Shown here: positions 4,040-57,820 of the stretch, piece by piece
Layout of the letters: the number at the start of each line of letters is the position of its first letter
How positions within the stretch are numbered: position 1 is the stretch's first letter
Assembly (NCBI GenBank): GCA_945947035.1
Contig: CAMEXD010000006.1
Location: 1,574 to 65,573 of the forward strand
DNA from: an uncultured Mycoplasma sp.
GTDB lineage: Bacteria; Bacillota_I; Bacilli_A; RF39; UBA660
DNA length: 64,000 nt
Reading direction: 5' to 3'
The notes under the pieces: generated by a model
Told to the model about the DNA's origin: nothing
Seen by the model: only the letters and a program-made list of their open reading frames with translations
The model's database searches: none
Position numbers and translations under genes: made by a program

Positions 4040-6097
4040 ATGAAAAGAATTAAAAGAAAAAAATTAAATAAAATGCGTTCAACTGATGTAAGCGATAAAA
4101 GAATAAACTTTTTAAAAGTAATATCTTTTATCTTTTTTGGCATTATCTTGGGAAGAATATTTTATCTTAATGTTTTTTATAAAGATTATTATACGATGAT
4201 TTTAAATAATAAAACTAAAATTATTGTGGAACAAGAAGATGCTCCACGTGGCAGAATACTTGATCGTAATGGTAAGGTTTTAGTAGATAATAAAGAAGTT
4301 AGAAAAATATATTATTTAAAAGACAAAAATATTACAACTAAAGAAGAAATAGAAATGTGTTATAAATTAAAAGATATTTTAGATCTTCCTTATGATAATT
4401 TACTTACTAGGAATTTAAAAGAATTTTATATTATTGTCTATGAAGAAGAAGCAAATAAAAAAATTACTTCTGAAGAATATGAAGATTTAAAAAACAGAAA
4501 ATTAACTGAAAATGAAGTGTATGAGTTAAAAATAGAAAGAATAACTAAAGAAGATTTAAGTGTTTTTAATCTTGATGATAAAAAAAGTGCTTATATTTAT
4601 TATCTTATGAATAAAGGATATTCTACTGACATGAAAACTATAAAAATAGATGCAACATATGAAGAATATGCCTATATTTCAGAAAGAATTGAAGAATTTA
4701 AAGGGTTTAATACTAAACTTGATTGGGAAAGAACTTATCCTTATGAAAATACTATAAGAAGTATTTTAGGTAGTGTTTCAGATAGTGAAACAGGAATACC
4801 AAAAGAAAAAGCAAGTTATTATTTAAGCCAAGGGTATGAATTGGATGATAGAGTAGGAATATCTGGTTTAGAAGAATATTACGATAAATATTTAAGAGGA
4901 GAAAAAGCAAAGTATCAAATAATGGAAGATGGTTCATTAGAAAAAATAAGTGATGCTAAAGCTGGTAATGATATTGTTTTATCAATAGATATTGATTTGC
5001 AGATTCAAATTGAAGATATGATGAAAGAAGAAGTTGTAAAAGCAAAAAGTGAACCTCATACTAAGTTTTATAATAGAAGTTTTGTAGTTATTCAAAATCC
5101 TAAAACAGGTGAAATATATTCTATGGCAGGAGTTCAAACCTTTAAAGAAAAAGGAAAATATGTAACTTATGATTATAGTATTGGCCCAATTGTATCAACT
5201 ATAACGCCAGGATCTGTAGTAAAAGGTGCAAGTATCATTGTTGGATATAATACGGGTGTTATAGATATTGGTACTACTATGCTTGACAGTTGCATTAAAT
5301 TTTTAAATATGCCTGAGAAATGTTCTTGGAAAAGTCTTGGTTATATAAATGATCTTGATGCTTTAAAGTGGTCTAGCAATATCTATCAATTTAAAATTGC
5401 CATGATGGTCGGAGGGCAAAGTTATAAATATAATTCAATGTTAGATCTTGATTTAAGTGCTTTTGATACTTACAGGAAGACATTTTATCAATTTGGTTTG
5501 GGAGTTAAAACAGGAATTGATTATCCAATTGAAGAAACAGGAGTAAAAGGAAAATCTATTGCATCTGATCTTTTAATAAACTATGCAATTGGCCAATATG
5601 ATACTTATACAACCCTTCAATTGTCACAATATATATCAACAATTGCCAATGATGGCTCAAGAGTAAAACCAAGATTTTTAAAAAGTGTTATTGATAGTAA
5701 TACAAATGAAGTAATATATGAATCTCCTACTATTGTTTTAAATAAAGTTGAAACTGAAGAAAAATACTTAAAAAGAGTACAAAAAGGATTTAGGTTGTGT
5801 ATTACTGGTGGAACTTGTGTTGATTATATGGGAAGTGCTTTAAAAGGTGCTGGAAAAACAGGAACAAGTGAAAGTTTTGTAGATGATGGAAGTGGTATTT
5901 ATGATCATCCTACAATGAGTAATAATTTTGTTGGTTATGCTCCATATGATGATCCTGTTATGAGTATTGCAGTATCATCACCTGATGTTTTAGATATGGA
6001 AACAGGAACTTATAGAACAGATGTTAATTATAGAATATCTAAAAAAGCATCTAATATATTTTTTTCACTCTATGATAGTAAAGGAAATAGAAAATAA
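4040..6097 (+). CDS. Class B penicillin-binding protein (PbpA/PbpH-like transpeptidase)
   Basis: N-terminal TM, APRGRILDRNG, SVVK (SxxK), SSN (SxN), KTG motifs. Confidence 0.92.
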   Translation: MKRIKRKKLNKMRSTDVSDKRINFLKVISFIFFGIILGRIFYLNVFYKDYYTMILNNKTKIIVEQEDAPRGRILDRNGKVLVDNKEVRKIYYLKDKNITTKEEIEMCYKLKDILDLPYDNLLTRNLKEFYIIVYEEEANKKITSEEYEDLKNRKLTENEVYELKIERITKEDLSVFNLDDKKSAYIYYLMNKGYSTDMKTIKIDATYEEYAYISERIEEFKGFNTKLDWERTYPYENTIRSILGSVSDSETGIPKEKASYYLSQGYELDDRVGISGLEEYYDKYLRGEKAKYQIMEDGSLEKISDAKAGNDIVLSIDIDLQIQIEDMMKEEVVKAKSEPHTKFYNRSFVVIQNPKTGEIYSMAGVQTFKEKGKYVTYDYSIGPIVSTITPGSVVKGASIIVGYNTGVIDIGTTMLDSCIKFLNMPEKCSWKSLGYINDLDALKWSSNIYQFKIAMMVGGQSYKYNSMLDLDLSAFDTYRKTFYQFGLGVKTGIDYPIEETGVKGKSIASDLLINYAIGQYDTYTTLQLSQYISTIANDGSRVKPRFLKSVIDSNTNEVIYESPTIVLNKVETEEKYLKRVQKGFRLCITGGTCVDYMGSALKGAGKTGTSESFVDDGSGIYDHPTMSNNFVGYAPYDDPVMSIAVSSPDVLDMETGTYRTDVNYRISKKASNIFFSLYDSKGNRK

Positions 6098-50006: not shown

Positions 50007-52631
50007 ATGAAATACGTTTATAGTTTTAATGAAGGTAATAAAGATATGAGAAATACTCTTGGAGGAAAAGGAGCAAATCTTTGTGAAATGACTAATTTAG
50101 GTTTACCTGTTCCCAAAGGATTTATTGTTTCAACTGATGCATGTATAGATTATTATAATAATAATGGTGCAATTAGTGATGAAATAATAAATGAAATCTA
50201 TGAAAAGCTTGAAGAATTAGAAAAAACAACAGGTAAAACTTTAGGTGATTCTAAAAACCCACTTCTTTTATCAGTTAGAAGTGGAGCAAGAAGTAGTATG
50301 CCTGGAATGATGGATACTGTTTTAAATTTAGGAATGAATGATGAAGTATGTGACTTTTTTCCTAATAAAAGATTTTCTTATGACAGCTATAGAAGATTTA
50401 TTCAAATGTATGCTGATGTAGTTATGGGTTTTCCTAAAGAGTCTTTCGAAGGTTTATTTGATAAACTAAAACAAGAAAAAAACGTTAAATACGATACTGA
50501 TTTAACTGAAGAAGATTTAAAAGAAGTAATAACTAGATACAAAGAAGAATATCAAAGATTAGCAAAAACTAGCTTTCCAACTGATCCAAAAGAACAATTA
50601 ATATCTGCCATAAAAGCAGTATTTAAAAGTTGGAATAATGAAAGAGCAATAACTTATAGAAGACTAAATGACATTCCATCAAGTTGGGGAACTGCAGTAA
50701 ATGTTCAAGAAATGGTATTTGGAAATAAAAACAATAATAGTGCAACAGGTGTTGCTTTTACAAGAAATCCTGCAACAGGAGAAAAAGTATTATACGGAGA
50801 ATACCTTGTTAATGCTCAAGGAGAAGATGTCGTAGCAGGTATTCGTACACCTAAATCAATTATTAATTTAAAACAAGAATTTCCAGATTGCTATAATGAA
50901 TTTACTAAAATTGCAGATACTCTAGAAAAACATTATCATGATATGCAAGATATGGAATTTACAATTGAAGATAATAAACTTTATATCTTACAAACTAGAA
51001 ATGGTAAAAGAACAGGAACAGCTGCAGTTAAAATTGCTATGGATTTATTAAAAGAGAATATGATAGATGAAAAAGAAGCACTTTTAATGGTTGATGCTAA
51101 AACACTTGATCAATTGCTTCATAAAACTTTTAATAAAGAACTTTTAAAAAATGCTAAAAAAATAGCTGAAGGGCTTCCAGCTTCACCTGGATCTGCTTAT
51201 GGAAAAATTTGTTTTGATGCAAAACATATAAAAGATCTTGCAAGTAATAATGAAAAAAATCTTATTTTAGTAAGAGATGAAACTTCTCCTGAAGATATCG
51301 AAGGAATAAACATTGCAAGTGGTATTTTAACCCTTAGGGGAGGAACAACATCACATGCTGCAGTTGTTGCTCGTGGTATGGGAACTTGTTGTGTTTGTGG
51401 TTGTAGTTCTTTAAAAATTGATTATGAAAACAAAATTTTAGAGACAGATTCTGGTATTATTTTACATGAAGACGATTATATTTCACTTGATGGAACAACT
51501 GGTTATGTTTATTTAGGAAAAATAGAAGTAGAAGATCCCATAATTGAAGATGACTTTAAAAAGCTTTTAGATTTAACAGATAAATATAAAAGTATGGAAG
51601 TAAGAGCCAATTCTGAAACACTAAAAGATAGCAAAACTGCCCTTAGTTTTGGAGCATTAGGAATTGGTTTATGTAGAACAGAGCACATGTTCTTTGAAAA
51701 TGAACGTATTTTTAACTTTAGAAAAATGATACTTTCAAAAAACAAAGAAGAAAGATGTGATGCATTAAATAAAATTCTTCCTTATCAAATAGAAGATTTT
51801 TATAATTTATTTAAAGTAATGAATGAATTAAGCGTTAATATAAGACTTCTTGATCCACCACTTCATGAATTTTTACCAAAAAAAGAAGAAGAAAAAATTG
51901 AGTTAGCAAAAGCTTTAAATATAAGTTATGAAGATATAAATAATAGAATAAATAGTCTAAAAGAATTTAATCCAATGATGGGACATAGAGGTATAAGGCT
52001 TGGTGTTACTTATCCAGAAATTGTTGTTATGCAAACTAAAGCTATAATAGAAGCAGCAATTAAAGCAGCAAAAGAAAATATTGCTGTAGAACCAGAAATA
52101 ATGATACCTTTAGTATGTAATAAAAAAGAATTACAGTATGTTAAAACTGTTATAAAAGAAACTGCAGATAAAATCATCAAAGAAGAAAAAACAAATATCT
52201 CTTATAAAATTGGTACAATGATTGAAATACCAAGAGCAGCAATTATTTCAAAAGATATAGCAAGTGATGTAGAATTCTATTCATTTGGAACTAATGATTT
52301 AACTCAGATGACTTACGGTTTTTCAAGAGATGATGCCGAAAAGTTTTTACCTTCTTACTATCAAAAACAAATTTTTGAATTTGATCCATTTGTTAGAGTT
52401 GATGAAGAAGGAGTTGGAACTTTAATTAAAAATGCTATAAAAGATGCCAAAGAAGTAAATAAAGATATAAAAATAGGTGTTTGTGGTGAACATGCAGGAG
52501 ATCCAAAAAGCATTGAATTCTTTGCTAAAGTTGGAGTAGATTATGTTTCATGTAGTCCATATCGTGTTCCTATTGCAAGACTTGCTGTTGCACAAGCTGC
52601 AATTAAAGCGAGTGAAAAGGATAACAAATAG
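50007..52631 (+). CDS. ppdK: Pyruvate, phosphate dikinase
   Basis: GGKGANL, SMPGMMDTVLN, GGTTSHAAVVAR, GLCRTEHMF, GVCGEH. Confidence 0.97.
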   Translation: MKYVYSFNEGNKDMRNTLGGKGANLCEMTNLGLPVPKGFIVSTDACIDYYNNNGAISDEIINEIYEKLEELEKTTGKTLGDSKNPLLLSVRSGARSSMPGMMDTVLNLGMNDEVCDFFPNKRFSYDSYRRFIQMYADVVMGFPKESFEGLFDKLKQEKNVKYDTDLTEEDLKEVITRYKEEYQRLAKTSFPTDPKEQLISAIKAVFKSWNNERAITYRRLNDIPSSWGTAVNVQEMVFGNKNNNSATGVAFTRNPATGEKVLYGEYLVNAQGEDVVAGIRTPKSIINLKQEFPDCYNEFTKIADTLEKHYHDMQDMEFTIEDNKLYILQTRNGKRTGTAAVKIAMDLLKENMIDEKEALLMVDAKTLDQLLHKTFNKELLKNAKKIAEGLPASPGSAYGKICFDAKHIKDLASNNEKNLILVRDETSPEDIEGINIASGILTLRGGTTSHAAVVARGMGTCCVCGCSSLKIDYENKILETDSGIILHEDDYISLDGTTGYVYLGKIEVEDPIIEDDFKKLLDLTDKYKSMEVRANSETLKDSKTALSFGALGIGLCRTEHMFFENERIFNFRKMILSKNKEERCDALNKILPYQIEDFYNLFKVMNELSVNIRLLDPPLHEFLPKKEEEKIELAKALNISYEDINNRINSLKEFNPMMGHRGIRLGVTYPEIVVMQTKAIIEAAIKAAKENIAVEPEIMIPLVCNKKELQYVKTVIKETADKIIKEEKTNISYKIGTMIEIPRAAIISKDIASDVEFYSFGTNDLTQMTYGFSRDDAEKFLPSYYQKQIFEFDPFVRVDEEGVGTLIKNAIKDAKEVNKDIKIGVCGEHAGDPKSIEFFAKVGVDYVSCSPYRVPIARLAVAQAAIKASEKDNK

Positions 52632-52896
52632 TTCGCATTATCATACCTGCTTAAGTCTTATAAATAAAGGTTTTAAGAAAATATTAATAAATTAAAACAA
52701 TCTATAAAAATAGGTAAATTTGCTAAAATTAGACTGAAATTTTAAAAATTTTGGTCTTTTTTTGATAAAAATAGCGCTTTTTGTGGCAAAGATTTAGTAC
52801 TTGAAAAATGGTATAAAATTAAATTAAAATAACCATATATTTAATTTTTATGATAATATATAATTAGCCAAAAAAGTCTTGGATTGGAGGTTAATT

Positions 52897-53886
52897 ATGG
52901 ACAATAAAAATTTAATGCTAAGACCAATGATGTTAATATCTGATATGGTTCTATATATGAAAAGTAAAAATATTAAATTTAAAAAATGTTCAGAGAAAGA
53001 TGCTGAAATATATTTGAGAGAAAACAATAATTATTATAATGTAACATCTTATAAAAATAATTTTATTAAATATCAATGTGGTGAACAACAAGGAAAGTAT
53101 ATAGATTTAGATTTTGCATATTTAAAAGATTTATCCATTATAGATTATAGGACCAGATTAGTATTATTTAAAATGATAATTAATATAGAACATTATTTAA
53201 AAATAAGAATATTAAATACTATAGAAGATATAATTGATGAAGATGGTTACAAAATAGTTAATCTATATTTAGAAAAAGATTTTAATGACAAAGAGCGTCC
53301 TAAAAGAGTTCATGACAGTATTAGAAAAAAAGTTACAAATGAATATTATCAGAAAATATTTTCTAAATATGATCTAGACAAGGATAGCAAAATAGAAAAT
53401 ATACCCATTTGGGAATTTTTAGAAATTATAACATTTGGGGAATTAATTAATTTCTTTGACTTTTTTACAAGTTATTATAAATTAGACGATAATAAATATA
53501 TATTTATTTTAAGAGAAGTAAATAAACTTAGAAATGCAGTAGCACATAATTCTTGTGTTTTATCTGAATTAGATAAAAAGGATAATACACATAGGGTTGA
53601 TACATTAGTTATTAATTATTTAAAAGATTGTGTAATAGGAAAAGAAAATAGAAATACAAAACTTTCTAATTCAAGAATAAGACAAATTACCTATACTTTA
53701 TATATATTTAATATTATAGTAAGTAGTGATGGGGTAAAAAATAATGTTAAACATGATATTACAAAATTATTTTATGGAAGAATAATTTTAAATGGAAAGT
53801 ACTATAATAATAATGAACTATTGAAATCCATATATAATTATTTTGATAAAATTATCGAAAAAAATTATAAAGAAAATTTGGACTAA
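52897..53886 (+). CDS. Abi family (AbiD/AbiF) HEPN-domain protein
   Basis: NYYNVTSYK, Y.D...R..L...I..IE, WEFLEIITFGEL, LRNAVAHN (RxxxxH); lies in an AT-rich island. Confidence 0.85.
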   Translation: MDNKNLMLRPMMLISDMVLYMKSKNIKFKKCSEKDAEIYLRENNNYYNVTSYKNNFIKYQCGEQQGKYIDLDFAYLKDLSIIDYRTRLVLFKMIINIEHYLKIRILNTIEDIIDEDGYKIVNLYLEKDFNDKERPKRVHDSIRKKVTNEYYQKIFSKYDLDKDSKIENIPIWEFLEIITFGELINFFDFFTSYYKLDDNKYIFILREVNKLRNAVAHNSCVLSELDKKDNTHRVDTLVINYLKDCVIGKENRNTKLSNSRIRQITYTLYIFNIIVSSDGVKNNVKHDITKLFYGRIILNGKYYNNNELLKSIYNYFDKIIEKNYKENLD

Positions 53887-53890
53887 TAGT

Positions 53891-53919
53891 TTGACATAGA
53901 AAAATATTTATGATATATT
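53891..53919 (+). promoter_or_regulatory. SigA promoter immediately after the abi stop codon
   Basis: TTGACA-17-TATATT with extended TG. Confidence 0.8.
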
Positions 53920-53923
53920 ATCT

Positions 53924-53990
53924 ATGCAAGGAAAAAATGTTAAATCATTTTTGTAAGGGGTTTATTTTCGGATAGAGCCCTATTTTTTTA
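53924..53990 (+). ncRNA. Candidate ~65-nt Abi-associated sRNA (putative RNA antitoxin)
   Basis: Promoter, AAAAAUG/CAUUUUU hairpin, then a GGGG..UUCG..CCCU terminator with U tract; no ORF. Confidence 0.65.
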
Positions 53991-54170
53991 ATTAAAAATT
54001 TAATTTAATAAAAAGTATAAATGATATTTACTTAATGATAATTAAAGTTTAATAATATTATATTAAAAAAATGCCCTTCAAACATTACGATGGTACAAGC
54101 TACAATTAAAACTGAAATAATTGGATAATATTATTTTAATAAACTTAATATAATATAAATTTATAACTAT

Positions 54171-54199
54171 TTGATATTTTCATAAAAATATAATATATT
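54171..54199 (+). promoter_or_regulatory. SigA-like promoter for the repeat array
   Basis: TTGATA-17-TATATT. Confidence 0.6.
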
Positions 54200-54222
54200 T
54201 ATATAGCTACTTAAAAAGTGGT

Positions 54223-54328
54223 GAAAATGTTTTTCGCTTCTGGATGGTGCGAATAATAAATGATTCCAGGCGACAATGTTTTTCGCTTCCAGGTGGTGCG
54301 ACTAATAAATGATCCTGGTTGAAAATGT
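54223..54328 (+). ncRNA. 2.2 x 49-nt tandem pseudoknot repeats, CptI-like type III antitoxin RNA
   Basis: Units 54223-54271, 54272-54320, partial 54321-54328; 39/49 identical; stems UCGC/GCGA and CUGGA/UCCAG vs CCAGG/CCUGG. Confidence 0.8.
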
Positions 54329-54333
54329 AGAAT

Positions 54334-54360
54334 AACTTCATCATATGATGGAGTTTTTTT
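54334..54360 (+). terminator. Intrinsic terminator closing the repeat array
   Basis: aacttcatc-atat-gatggagtt followed by a T tract. Confidence 0.85.
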
Positions 54361-54531
54361 GTTTTATGATATATTATTTCTACATGTTTATATTATACAA
54401 GATATATTTATAAAACATTTAACAAATAAGAAAATTACCTCTGTTGTCTTTAATAAAAATAAAAAATATATTATAATATTAACAAGTCTTAAAAAATTTA
54501 AATCTTATTAAAAAGAGGTGACTTAATAACC

Positions 54532-56046
54532 GTGGCAAATAAATTTGTTCCATTATTGTTTGCAATTATTTTTACTTTTTGGACAGTTAGAGTATATTAT
54601 AAGTTATACGATAGTAAAACAAGAAGATATATTTTAATTATTGGCATCTTAATTATTTTTTGGATGCTAATTAGAATTATAAAAGGAGTTACAATTGATA
54701 TCAAGATAGAAAGAATATGTTGGTATTTATATTATTTACCACTTATATTTATTCCAAGTCTTTTTTATATTTGTTCTAATTCGTTATCAAATAAAATGAA
54801 TGAAAAAAGAAAAATACTGATATATATAGTTTCTTCAATATTATTAATATTAGTTTTAACTAATGATTTTCACCAATTTGTTTTTAAATTTAATCATGGA
54901 ATAAATTTTCATAATAATTATAATCATTATATTGGTTATTACTTAATTTTTATTTGGATATTTTATTTATTTGGTGGTGGCATGATAAGTTTAGCAATAA
55001 ATAGATTAAAAATTACGAAAGATTTAAAAGCATTTTTGCCTTTAATAGTTTTATTACTTGGTTTAATTTATAATTATCTTAATATTATGGATGTTCCATA
55101 TATTAGGCGAATGAACATGTCAATTGTTAATAGTGTTTTGATCTGTTTAGGAATTGAACTTGCTTTTTATTTAGAATTAATACCAAATAATAAAAAATAT
55201 ATTCAAAAGTTTTCCAATTCAAATTTGGATATGGTAATTGTATCACTAGATGGAAAAACAAAATATACTACTTGTTCATTTAAAACAATTCCAAGTTTTA
55301 TTTTAGATGATATTAAAAAAAATCAAGTAAAAAATACTTATAAAATGAAACATGTAGTTTATAATGTTAAGAAAAATAAAGATAATTATGTAATACTAAA
55401 AAAAGATTTAACCAATATTTATAAATTAGAGGATGAAATAAAAAGCCAAAAAAAGAAATTATTAAAACAACAAGAAAGCATGAAATTAGAAGAAAAAACA
55501 AAAAAGGAATTATATGAAATAAAAATAAGAAAAGAAACAATTAGTAGAGTTGAAAAAAAATTAAATGAAAAAAGATTAGAAGCTAAAAATATTGTAATGA
55601 AGAATGATGTTAAAAAAGAAGATTTAGAAAAAGTAAAAAGAATTATAGTATATAGCAAAAAGAAAAGCATGCTTATTATTTCTGAAATGAATAATGAAGT
55701 ATACAATGAAGAAAGTATAAAAATACTACTAAATGAACTAATAACTAGTATGCCAAGTTTAAATATAGAAGGTTTAGTAGTTGTAAAAAATAAAATGACT
55801 ATTAAAGGTAGTATTATGTCTTACTTATATGATATCGTCTATGAACTTATGGAAAATTCTAAAAGTAAAACTATAATGATTTTTGTATTTAGTAATAATA
55901 ATATAGTTAAATTAAAAGCAATTGTTGGTACAAGTGAAAAAATAAAAGATAATTTAAAATTAGATTCTAGTATTAAAATAAAAGAAAATGTTTATGATAC
56001 AGACACTGAACTAGAATTTACTATAAAGGATAGTGATAACTTATGA
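54532..56046 (+). CDS. 7TM sensor-kinase-like subunit lacking H-box and ATPase motifs
   Basis: Seven TM (CWYLYYLPLIFIP), PAS-like region and coiled coil; no His/N/G boxes recognisable. Confidence 0.7.
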   Translation: MANKFVPLLFAIIFTFWTVRVYYKLYDSKTRRYILIIGILIIFWMLIRIIKGVTIDIKIERICWYLYYLPLIFIPSLFYICSNSLSNKMNEKRKILIYIVSSILLILVLTNDFHQFVFKFNHGINFHNNYNHYIGYYLIFIWIFYLFGGGMISLAINRLKITKDLKAFLPLIVLLLGLIYNYLNIMDVPYIRRMNMSIVNSVLICLGIELAFYLELIPNNKKYIQKFSNSNLDMVIVSLDGKTKYTTCSFKTIPSFILDDIKKNQVKNTYKMKHVVYNVKKNKDNYVILKKDLTNIYKLEDEIKSQKKKLLKQQESMKLEEKTKKELYEIKIRKETISRVEKKLNEKRLEAKNIVMKNDVKKEDLEKVKRIIVYSKKKSMLIISEMNNEVYNEESIKILLNELITSMPSLNIEGLVVVKNKMTIKGSIMSYLYDIVYELMENSKSKTIMIFVFSNNNIVKLKAIVGTSEKIKDNLKLDSSIKIKENVYDTDTELEFTIKDSDNL

Positions 56047-57161
56047 GATTACTACTAATATTAACGATTGTAGCAACTATATTACAAGCTTTTAGAACAT
56101 CTATTTATTATCTAAGAAAAGATATATCTTATATAAAAAAAATAATAGAAATAGTAATTTTAATTTTGATGATAATATTAGACTATTTTAATTTAACAGA
56201 AAATATTTTAAAATTAACGTTTTATTTTGCTCTTATATTATCCTTTTATATTTTTGTTTCATTTATATATGAAAAGTTATTTAAAAATGATTATATATCA
56301 ATATTATCAGTAAAAAATGGAATTGATATGTCTGATACAGCAATAATGTTTTTGGATGATGATAACATAATATTAATGAATAACGTGATGAGTGATATTT
56401 TAAAAGAATTAAACATTCAAAAAGATTATATAAATAGCTTAATAAAAAAATGTACTGAAAATATTGATGATGATTATTTATTAAAGTGTAATAATAGGGT
56501 ATTTTTATTAAAAATATTTAATAATAAAGAAGTTTCATTGATTGATGTAACTAAGCTATATAAATTACAAGAACAAGAAAAATTACAAAATAAAAAAATA
56601 AAAGAAAATAACGAAAAAATATTAGATACAATAAATAATATAGAAAAAATAGAAAAAGCTAAAAGTTTATTAAAAATAAAAAATGAATATCATGATATAA
56701 TAGGTCATCGTCTTGCTTTGTTTTCAAAATACTTAGAAAATGACACTAAAGATATTAAAAGTATATTATTCTTATTAGATAGTATTTATGAGGATTTTAA
56801 TTCTAAATTATCTAGTACTTGGAAGTTGAAAAATTTAGTTAAGATGTATCAAGTAATTGGTATAAACATAATTATAAAAGGTGGACTTCCACAAGATGAA
56901 AAAGTTGCTAATATATTTTTTGAAATAATAAGAGAATCAATTACTAATGCTGTTATTCATGCAGATAGTAAAAATATTAAAGTAATAATAAAAAAGTACT
57001 TTGATAGAACTAATATGATTATAACAAATGATGGTAAAAAGCCAAATCATATTATTTATGAGAATGAAGGTATAAAAGGAATGAGAAGGAAACTAACTTT
57101 AATAAATGGAAGTTTAAATGTTTCTACTGAAAATGATTTTGTTTTAAAAATTGTTGTATAA
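56043..57161 (+). CDS. HisKA_3-type sensor histidine kinase
   Basis: EYHDIIGH H-box, RESITNAVIHA N-box, TNDG, GIKGMRRK; overlaps the upstream gene (ATGA-like coupling). Confidence 0.82.
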   Translation: MRLLLILTIVATILQAFRTSIYYLRKDISYIKKIIEIVILILMIILDYFNLTENILKLTFYFALILSFYIFVSFIYEKLFKNDYISILSVKNGIDMSDTAIMFLDDDNIILMNNVMSDILKELNIQKDYINSLIKKCTENIDDDYLLKCNNRVFLLKIFNNKEVSLIDVTKLYKLQEQEKLQNKKIKENNEKILDTINNIEKIEKAKSLLKIKNEYHDIIGHRLALFSKYLENDTKDIKSILFLLDSIYEDFNSKLSSTWKLKNLVKMYQVIGINIIIKGGLPQDEKVANIFFEIIRESITNAVIHADSKNIKVIIKKYFDRTNMIITNDGKKPNHIIYENEGIKGMRRKLTLINGSLNVSTENDFVLKIVV

Positions 57162-57187: not shown

Positions 57188-57820
57188 TTATTTTTTAATA
57201 TTTGGAATAATATATCCATTACTTACACAAAATATAGTAAGTTTAGATATACTGTCAAATCCCATTTTATTAAGAATATTAGTAATATAGTTTTTTAGTG
57301 TTCCAGAAGTAATGTTTAACTCTTTTGCGATATCCTCTCTATCCATGGCTTCACATAATAATTTTATTATTTTAATTTCTTTAGCTGAAAGATTTTTTAA
57401 TTTTTCATTTTCATCATTATAAATATAATTATCTGGAAATAAAGTATATCCATTAAGTATTTGATTAATACTTGTAAGAAGGGAATAACTATCAATATCT
57501 TTATAAATTAATCCGTCCAAATTATATTTTTTGGCATTATCCAAAAATGTTATTTCTGGTATTCCAGTAATAGCTAAAATTTTAACTTTTTTGCCATATT
57601 TTTCTTTTACTTCTTTGCCATAATCTATACCATTAGCACCATCTTTGGTAACAACATCTGTAAGAATTAAATCTGGAGTATATTTTTCGTATAAAGTCAT
57701 CATATCTTTAGCGCTAGTACAAGTACAGACTATGTCATAAAAATTAGATAGCATTTTTTGCATCATATTATTAAGAAGAGCTTGATCTTCAATAATCATA
57801 ATTTTTTTCTTTATAGGCAT
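57188..57820 (-). CDS. NarL/LuxR family response regulator
   Basis: IIEDQ, PDLILTDV, LSAKEIKII..GTLKNYITNILNKMG. Confidence 0.92.
   Translation of the reverse strand: MPIKKKIMIIEDQALLNNMMQKMLSNFYDIVCTCTSAKDMMTLYEKYTPDLILTDVVTKDGANGIDYGKEVKEKYGKKVKILAITGIPEITFLDNAKKYNLDGLIYKDIDSYSLLTSINQILNGYTLFPDNYIYNDENEKLKNLSAKEIKIIKLLCEAMDREDIAKELNITSGTLKNYITNILNKMGFDSISKLTIFCVSNGYIIPNIKK

Follow-up and report, generated by a model that had tools for sequence, protein, structure and literature searches.

A toxin-less CptI array behind an AbiF-like gene and its small RNA: probably a decaying stack of two cassettes at the ppdK tail of an uncultured Mycoplasma sp.

A 1.8-kb island lies between the pyruvate phosphate dikinase gene ppdK and a sensor operon in a 64,000-nucleotide stretch of DNA from an uncultured Mycoplasma sp. 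(assembly GCA_945947035.1, contig CAMEXD010000006.1, positions 1,574 to 65,573), which is referred to here as the window. The window is strongly AT-rich, and the island holds three elements on the + strand: an abi gene of the Abi_2 family, a small RNA (sRNA) encoded behind it, and a short tandem array resembling CptI, the repeat antitoxin of the type III toxin-antitoxin system CptIN. They are placed as an earlier note on this DNA had claimed. That note remarked that two RNA antitoxin modules share the island with only one RNase toxin, and proposed either a decayed defence hotspot or a hybrid in which the Abi protein processes, or is regulated by, pseudoknot repeats. The source is a metagenome-assembled genome (MAG) of 1.17 Mb in 42 contigs that is 70.9% complete, and the locus sits inside a 70.8-kb contig. 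Sequencing runs X1-X7, from pig gut, also contain the locus. Labels beginning with G, C and L denote genomes, contigs and loci respectively, with G000 being the source genome. The features of the locus, in window coordinates, are as follows.

50007-52631, + strand: ppdK, an 874-aa open reading frame (ORF) whose 3' end appears to be an insertion hotspot
52801-52830, + strand: candidate abi promoter, TTGAAA-18-TAAAAT (consensus scan, 10/12 positions)
52897-53886, + strand: Abi_2 / AbiD-AbiF-type HEPN protein of 329 aa (PF07751), a putative RNase toxin
53891-53919, + strand: sRNA promoter, TTGACA-17-TG-TATATT (11/12 positions, with TG extension)
53924-53987, + strand: sRNA of ~64 nt with two hairpins, the proposed antitoxin (covariance model R2, 86.6 bits)
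54072-54128, + strand: degenerate copy of the ppdK 3' end, the scar (alignment to the ppdK tail of G005:C23)
54171-54199, + strand: promoter of the CptI array, TTGATA-17-TATATT (promoter scan)
54220-54333, + strand: CptI-type array of two full 49-nt units and a 9-nt partial third (Tandem Repeats Finder, model R1)
54334-54365, + strand: intrinsic terminator of the array, a 9-bp stem at 54334-54355 plus a T-run
54377-54531, + strand: spacer at the expected position of cptN (homology to L033 stops at ~54376)
54532-56046, + strand: 7TM histidine-kinase-like sensor, first gene of the flanking operon and outside the island (PF16927 HisKA_7TM, E 7.7e-9)

The identity of the first element is clear from its protein. 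The abi ORF matches Abi_2 in Pfam (PF07751, E 1.5e-23) and AbiD in PADLOC (E 1e-14), and it carries the HEPN Rx4H motif in the form RNAVAH, of which R212, N213 and H217 are invariant in our alignment of Abi proteins (A4). The PDB gave no match to the single sequence; a profile was required, and one made from the window Abi, three paralogues of the same genome and four orthologues matched the AbiF chain 8VZ6 (E 4.5e-22). A scan for Abi orthologues with one genome per species returned 80 loci (59-93% identity), and the closest public relatives in it are MAGs assembled from gut samples of humans, pigs, rabbits and chickens, including 'Clostridium sp. CAG:710' and 'Candidatus Onthousia'. The DNA upstream of abi is not conserved, matching in only two of the 80 orthologous loci, and the abiF motif RF03085 has no match at E <= 10 within 52600-54560.

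The three Abi_2 paralogues in the source genome lie outside the window, one at G000:C3:57698-58654 and two in G000:C17 (L028-L030), and RF03085 has no match near them at E <= 1. The RNA-like elements that flank them are different. The C3 paralogue has an upstream hairpin loop, AUCCCGUGUGGA, that is complementary to a stretch directly after the stop codon, and one of the C17 paralogues is flanked on either side by the hairpin motif GAUUGGUA-stem-AAACUUUCGAAGC-stem-UCG, whose stems carry compensatory changes.

What is conserved around abi is the sRNA that follows it. Its promoter is near-consensus and extended and begins 5 nt past the abi stop codon, and the second of its two hairpins forms the terminator, with the T-run at the RNA end. 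A covariance model of the transcribed part found the sRNA in 77 of the 80 Abi loci, always on the gene strand and ~40 nt past the stop codon; of the three loci without a match, L037 and L040 are truncated by a contig end and L100 was not examined, so that these apart no intact abi was seen without its sRNA among the 80 loci. Compensatory changes occur in 9 of the 15 predicted pairs, two GCAAGG motifs are conserved and single-stranded, and conservation among the orthologous loci extends to the -35 and -10 boxes. Five loci (L104, L107, L108, L109 and L110) carry two to four tandem copies with a period of ~114 nt, each copy with its own promoter. Family-wide, across 401 genomes of the same family, there are 62 copies in 50 genomes, and six or seven of these copies adjoin an array. 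The sRNA matches no Rfam family, either at the gathering threshold or at E <= 10.

Loci with a deleted or broken abi (G005:C82, G227:C13, G128:C4 and G101:C58) still carry the sRNA, a persistence from which we infer that it is the RNA antitoxin of Abi. By analogy with AbiF, which is controlled by the non-coding RNA (ncRNA) AbiFr, the most likely restraint on this Abi is its own sRNA and not CptI, and the subfamily appears to encode its RNA partner downstream of the gene and behind a separate promoter. There is thus a well-supported sRNA family outside Rfam, downstream of one AbiF-like subfamily and sometimes amplified in tandem. An RNA encoded 3' of the gene would add to the range of architectures known among AbiF-type RNA-protein toxin-antitoxin pairs, the proposed ancestors of Cas13.

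The third element is the array. Tandem Repeats Finder reports it at 54220-54328 (period 49, 2.2 copies, score 153), and model R1 places its two units at 54225-54274 (72 bits) and 54274-54323 (71 bits). Because the array has no match in Rfam, at the gathering threshold or at E <= 10, it was identified through its toxin-bearing homologues. It occurs once in its own genome, many other members of the family have related arrays, and CptI units are present in 88 of the 401 genomes. The arrays of L033 and G016 are 98-99% identical to that of the window, and in L033 the array precedes an intact cptN. In several relatives the array is followed by a terminator and, 60-140 nt beyond the array, by a 155-aa ORF beginning M.V.TGY.YHIKDEFF, whose product matches the CptN crystal chain 4RMO in the PDB (E 2.4e-18). 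This toxin is not recognised by Pfam, and PADLOC gives only a weak AbiQ match.

The fold gives a second line of evidence. In a set of 20 distinct units drawn from 12 loci, pseudoknot stems S1 (4 bp) and S2 (5 bp) are 97.8% paired, compensatory changes affect 7 of the 9 S1/S2 pairs, none of 500 shuffles reached the observed pairing, and a shift of register lowers it to <= 53%. In the window itself, three compensatory swaps in S2 separate one unit from the other (CUGGA/UCCAG against CCAGG/CCUGG). The layout of the unit is that of the Eubacterium rectale CptI (PMC4627078), with S1, S2, an A-rich L2 loop AUAAAUG and a UUGA tail. The presence of units in 88 family genomes together with the stem covariation argues against a chance repeat, and since homologous arrays precede CptN homologues and both stems covary, the array appears to be a genuine CptI antitoxin. 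Its promoter is weaker than that of the sRNA: the -35 box differs by one C>T change from the homologous TTGACA-17-TATATT found before cptN-bearing arrays in L033, L016 and L017. The terminator behind the array is the only one found in 52500-54700 and is conserved in homologous loci.

No toxin ORF follows this array, and the interval 54361-54535 shows no similarity to CptN in any frame by translation and BLAST, which bears out the observation that the island has only one RNase toxin. The source assembly, 70.9% complete, contains no CptN homologue at E <= 10. Homology between the window and L033 stops at 54376, ~20 nt past the terminator and just before the ribosome-binding site of cptN. An absence of this kind in a fragmented and incomplete MAG might mean that cptN is present in the organism and was dropped or collapsed during assembly, but the chance of this is negligible: the locus is internal to its contig, and the 175 nt of 54361-54535, from terminator to sensor, are 100% identical in G005:C82, an independently assembled MAG of another species of the genus. 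This identical junction rules out misassembly. L041 likewise lacks cptN and aligns with the window (81.7%) from the array to 54431, beyond the point where homology to L033 ends.

Relatives supply the states on either side of the one seen here. L033 and G169:C24 have both toxins intact, in the order abi-sRNA-(relic)-cptI-cptN. In the window cptN is gone, with two intact units and one -35 mismatch remaining. G005:C82 retains 1.2 units, has its -35 box deleted and has abi cut down to its last ~35 nt, while L041 retains 1.2 units with point mutations. One unit without a promoter and with S1 broken is left in L056, and half a unit with the terminator in L052. In three loci, namely L018 (G005:C82, 531-700), L134 (G227:C13, 2500-3400) and L135 (G128:C4), abi and cptN are gone or broken and the sRNA and CptI array still stand side by side, 91-98% identical to those of the window.

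Loss of cptN is common beyond this locus. Grouping the best 150 CptI units gave 98 high-scoring arrays, of which 47 lead into an intact cptN, 14 lead into a broken or fragmentary one and 37 have no cptN after them. A CptN match is missing altogether from 22 of the 80 genomes that bear arrays. Inspection of twenty orphan arrays other than that of the window revealed no alternative conserved toxin behind them; the downstream genes are mutually unrelated (NUDIX, ABC transporter, GTPase, phosphoesterase and others). The junctions left by cptN loss vary among genomes, one of them joining the cptN start codon to a NUDIX gene. The unrelated downstream genes and differing junctions indicate that the losses were recurrent and independent. 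This is evidence that in type III systems the RNA antitoxin outlasts the toxin; toxin-less arrays make up ~38% of the high-scoring CptI arrays surveyed in this family of gut Bacilli. L020 (G023:C22) and G390:C13 have a different arrangement, array-cptN-array, with a second, toxin-less array ~100-150 nt after an intact cptN; this could be the remnant of a tandem duplication or an extra source of antitoxin.

The frequency of orphan arrays raises the question of whether they are kept for action in trans, either on a distant cptN, which here would lie in the unassembled 29% of the genome, or as anti-addiction or immunity RNA against CptN carried by mobile elements. The array, promoter and terminator of the window are intact, many of the 37 toxin-less arrays keep intact pseudoknots, a consensus promoter and a terminator, and in G005, G128, G023 and G390 a complete cptIN has an orphan array 0.1-2.5 kb away. 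We nevertheless consider retention for a trans role unlikely. In the only sample not selected by array quality, the arrays found by way of abi, four of five toxin-less arrays are eroded. The array-bearing genomes that lack any CptN match are mostly >90% complete, and an antitoxin that outlasts its lost toxin is the neutral expectation in toxin-antitoxin decay. The absence of substitutions in 61 nt between the window and G005:C82 is suggestive but not significant at a flank divergence of 4.4% (P ~0.06). It is similarly improbable that orphan CptI arrays in general, along with neighbouring orphan sRNAs, are kept as immunity RNAs against mobile or phage CptN or Abi, or buffer a distant toxin; if they were, an 'antitoxin only' hotspot would have a function, in anti-addiction or anti-defence, instead of being debris.

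How the two modules came to lie together is recorded in the DNA between them. The stretch at 54072-54128, between sRNA and array, duplicates the final ~55 nt of ppdK in degenerate form, and a ppdK-tail relic in this position indicates that the modules were inserted separately. In G005:C23, from another species of the same genus, the tail of the live ppdK matches the scar and leads directly into a cptI promoter, array and intact cptN, which suggests that cptIN was the earlier resident and that abi and its sRNA were inserted in front of it. Comparable relics occur elsewhere: L033 has two (4151-4200 and 5018-5070), one after each cassette, and L036 (4140-4217), L038, L039, L041, L042 and L105 have one after the sRNA. 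In many relatives a ppdK orthologue lies directly upstream of abi or cptI. Protein identity in the abi cassette is 89-93% between genomes in which that of ppdK is only 57-65%, and cassettes so much more conserved than ppdK, together with the near-identical arrays, point to horizontal movement into a shared hotspot. From these alignments the ppdK tail appears to serve repeatedly as a place where cassettes insert or recombine and build up, with relics bracketing each one. It is a clear example, with a dated scar, of defence cassettes accreting at the 3' end of a housekeeping gene.

The same scar bears on the idea of a hybrid, a three-part system with two RNAs in which the HEPN Abi protein would bind, process or be regulated by the CptI repeats. 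The elements are close and co-oriented, the composite recurs in several genera, and AbiF proteins are known to bind and process structured ncRNA (PMC12737573). Against this, the modules are separated by a ppdK-tail scar, and their co-occurrence is poor: Abi loci that nearly always carry the sRNA have a CptI unit within 3 kb in only 3 of 80 cases, plus one half-unit remnant. One of those three is L033, in which, as in G169, cptN is intact and the array therefore has its normal partner. Seen from the array, Abi_2 genes are present in 77 of 80 array-bearing genomes but adjoin the array at only ~6 sites, some with an intact cptN. Only 2 of the 37 orphan arrays lie beside an Abi_2 gene, those of the window and G333, and in G333 the order is reversed, array then abi, with abi broken. 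The GCAAGG motifs of the sRNA, as read from the sequence, are absent from the array. A protein-binding motif shared by sRNA and CptI was also sought, and only the AT-rich word AAAATGTT, which is not meaningful here, was found in common.

Decay is again informative. Arrays erode next to an intact abi in L041, L056 and L052, from which it follows that the array RNA is not needed by Abi. A hybrid is accordingly highly improbable, and the association of Abi genes with toxin-less CptI arrays that the earlier note had put forward as its sign does not extend in any number beyond this genome. The suggested link between type III repeats and HEPN/Cas13-like repeat processing does not hold here; a relation of HEPN/Abi to Cas13-like RNA handling has already been published for AbiF with its own ncRNA, without CptI (PMC12737573; bioRxiv 10.1101/2025.04.15.648962). 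The other proposal of that note, a decayed defence hotspot, agrees with the ppdK relic, the relatives with intact abi-sRNA-cptI-cptN and the eroding toxin-less arrays beside abi.

We therefore regard it as very likely that the island consists of two independent type III cassettes stacked at the ppdK hotspot, that cptN has been deleted and that the locus is decaying. The older resident would have been a complete cptIN, with promoter, 2.2 CptI repeats, terminator and the cptN endoribonuclease gene. A later insertion into the ppdK tail, upstream of cptIN, would have brought a new ppdK tail, the AbiF-like HEPN gene and the 3' sRNA with its promoter, leaving the old ppdK tail as the scar. Subsequently a clean deletion beginning just before the ribosome-binding site would have removed cptN. 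Loss of a toxin should be harmless as long as the antitoxin stays, and so the array would survive as a functionless relic that is probably still transcribed.

Four observations weigh against this account. The assembly is incomplete enough that a cptN elsewhere could be served in trans. The array of the window is fully intact, with both units able to fold and a single promoter mismatch, and may continue to function. The composite abi-sRNA-cptI(-cptN) occurs in ~10 genomes of several genera, which is more than two random cassettes predict; its recurrence may be due to a common site of insertion together with transfer of the block as one piece. Lastly, the metatranscriptome contigs that bear the array (X26, X29-X31) derive from relatives that keep the cptN ribosome-binding site and are uninformative on expression or processing in this organism.

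Two neighbouring or related loci complete the description. The sensor operon beyond the island (54532-57161) comprises the HisKA_7TM protein, of 504 aa, and a 372-aa membrane protein without a Pfam match that overlaps it by 4 nt (ATGA), and is followed by a convergent NarL-type response regulator (57188-57820). Outside the window, at G000:C7:41128-41815 on the minus strand (L132, L133), lies a second type III locus, of toxIN/AbiQ type, in the order promoter, 3.1 repeats of 34 nt (AAAGCGGUGAAUCCAGCCAUAAAUGGGACUUAAU), terminator and ToxN gene (PF13958, 105.7 bits). An A8 run in this gene holds a frameshift, which may reflect a pseudogene, a phase-variable gene or a homopolymer sequencing error.

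The closest known system to the array is CptIN of Coprococcus catus and Eubacterium rectale (4RMO; Blower et al. 2012, PMC3401426; Rao et al. 2015, PMC4627078). In common with it the array is short, has its own promoter and forms H-type pseudoknots with an A-rich L2, and a terminator stands after the array at the place where type III loci have one between antitoxin and toxin; the CptN homologue downstream is found in the relatives of the window. The window locus differs in that both it and its source assembly lack cptN, in lying behind an unrelated Abi cassette, and in its unit of 49-50 nt, 1-2 nt above the published range for cptIN of 40-48 nt (PMC3401426). Its copy number of 2.2 agrees with the published 1.9-3.4. 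Loci of cptIN with full arrays but truncated toxins have been noted earlier (Blower et al., PMC3401426), while fully orphan CptI arrays were uncatalogued because previous searches were anchored on the toxin. Given how many toxin-less arrays there are, surveys of that kind will undercount such loci.

The Abi cassette resembles AbiF/AbiFr and the Clostridioides difficile pair AbiF/RCd22 (8VZ6) in its Abi_2 fold and Rx4H motif. In both pairs, as here, a single protein gene is tightly linked to a small structured RNA, which comes with a sigma-A-type promoter and a terminator of its own and can be repeated. In published AbiF systems the ncRNA antitoxin of the HEPN protein is encoded upstream (PMC12737573; bioRxiv 10.1101/2025.04.15.648962), whereas the sRNA of the window lies downstream of the gene and not in a 5' leader, does not match RF03085 even at E <= 10, and has a putative antitoxin role.

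The locus as a whole can be compared with orphan antitoxins and decaying toxin-antitoxin loci, in which toxin loss comes first and the antitoxin stays behind, recurrently and in many genomes. It is distinguished from type II anti-addiction modules in that the antitoxin is an RNA repeat array, and any role in trans is putative. With the claim of a hybrid the interest of that claim is lost, and the remaining value of the locus is in annotation and in the natural history of toxin-antitoxin systems. With regard to its site, no integrase or recombinase was seen within the 1.8 kb, unlike other integration hotspots, but in its remaining features the ppdK tail resembles the 3'-end integration hotspots of defence islands: degenerate direct repeats of the end of the target gene bracket the cassettes, one site holds different cassettes in different genomes, and the cassettes are far more conserved than the gene that flanks them.

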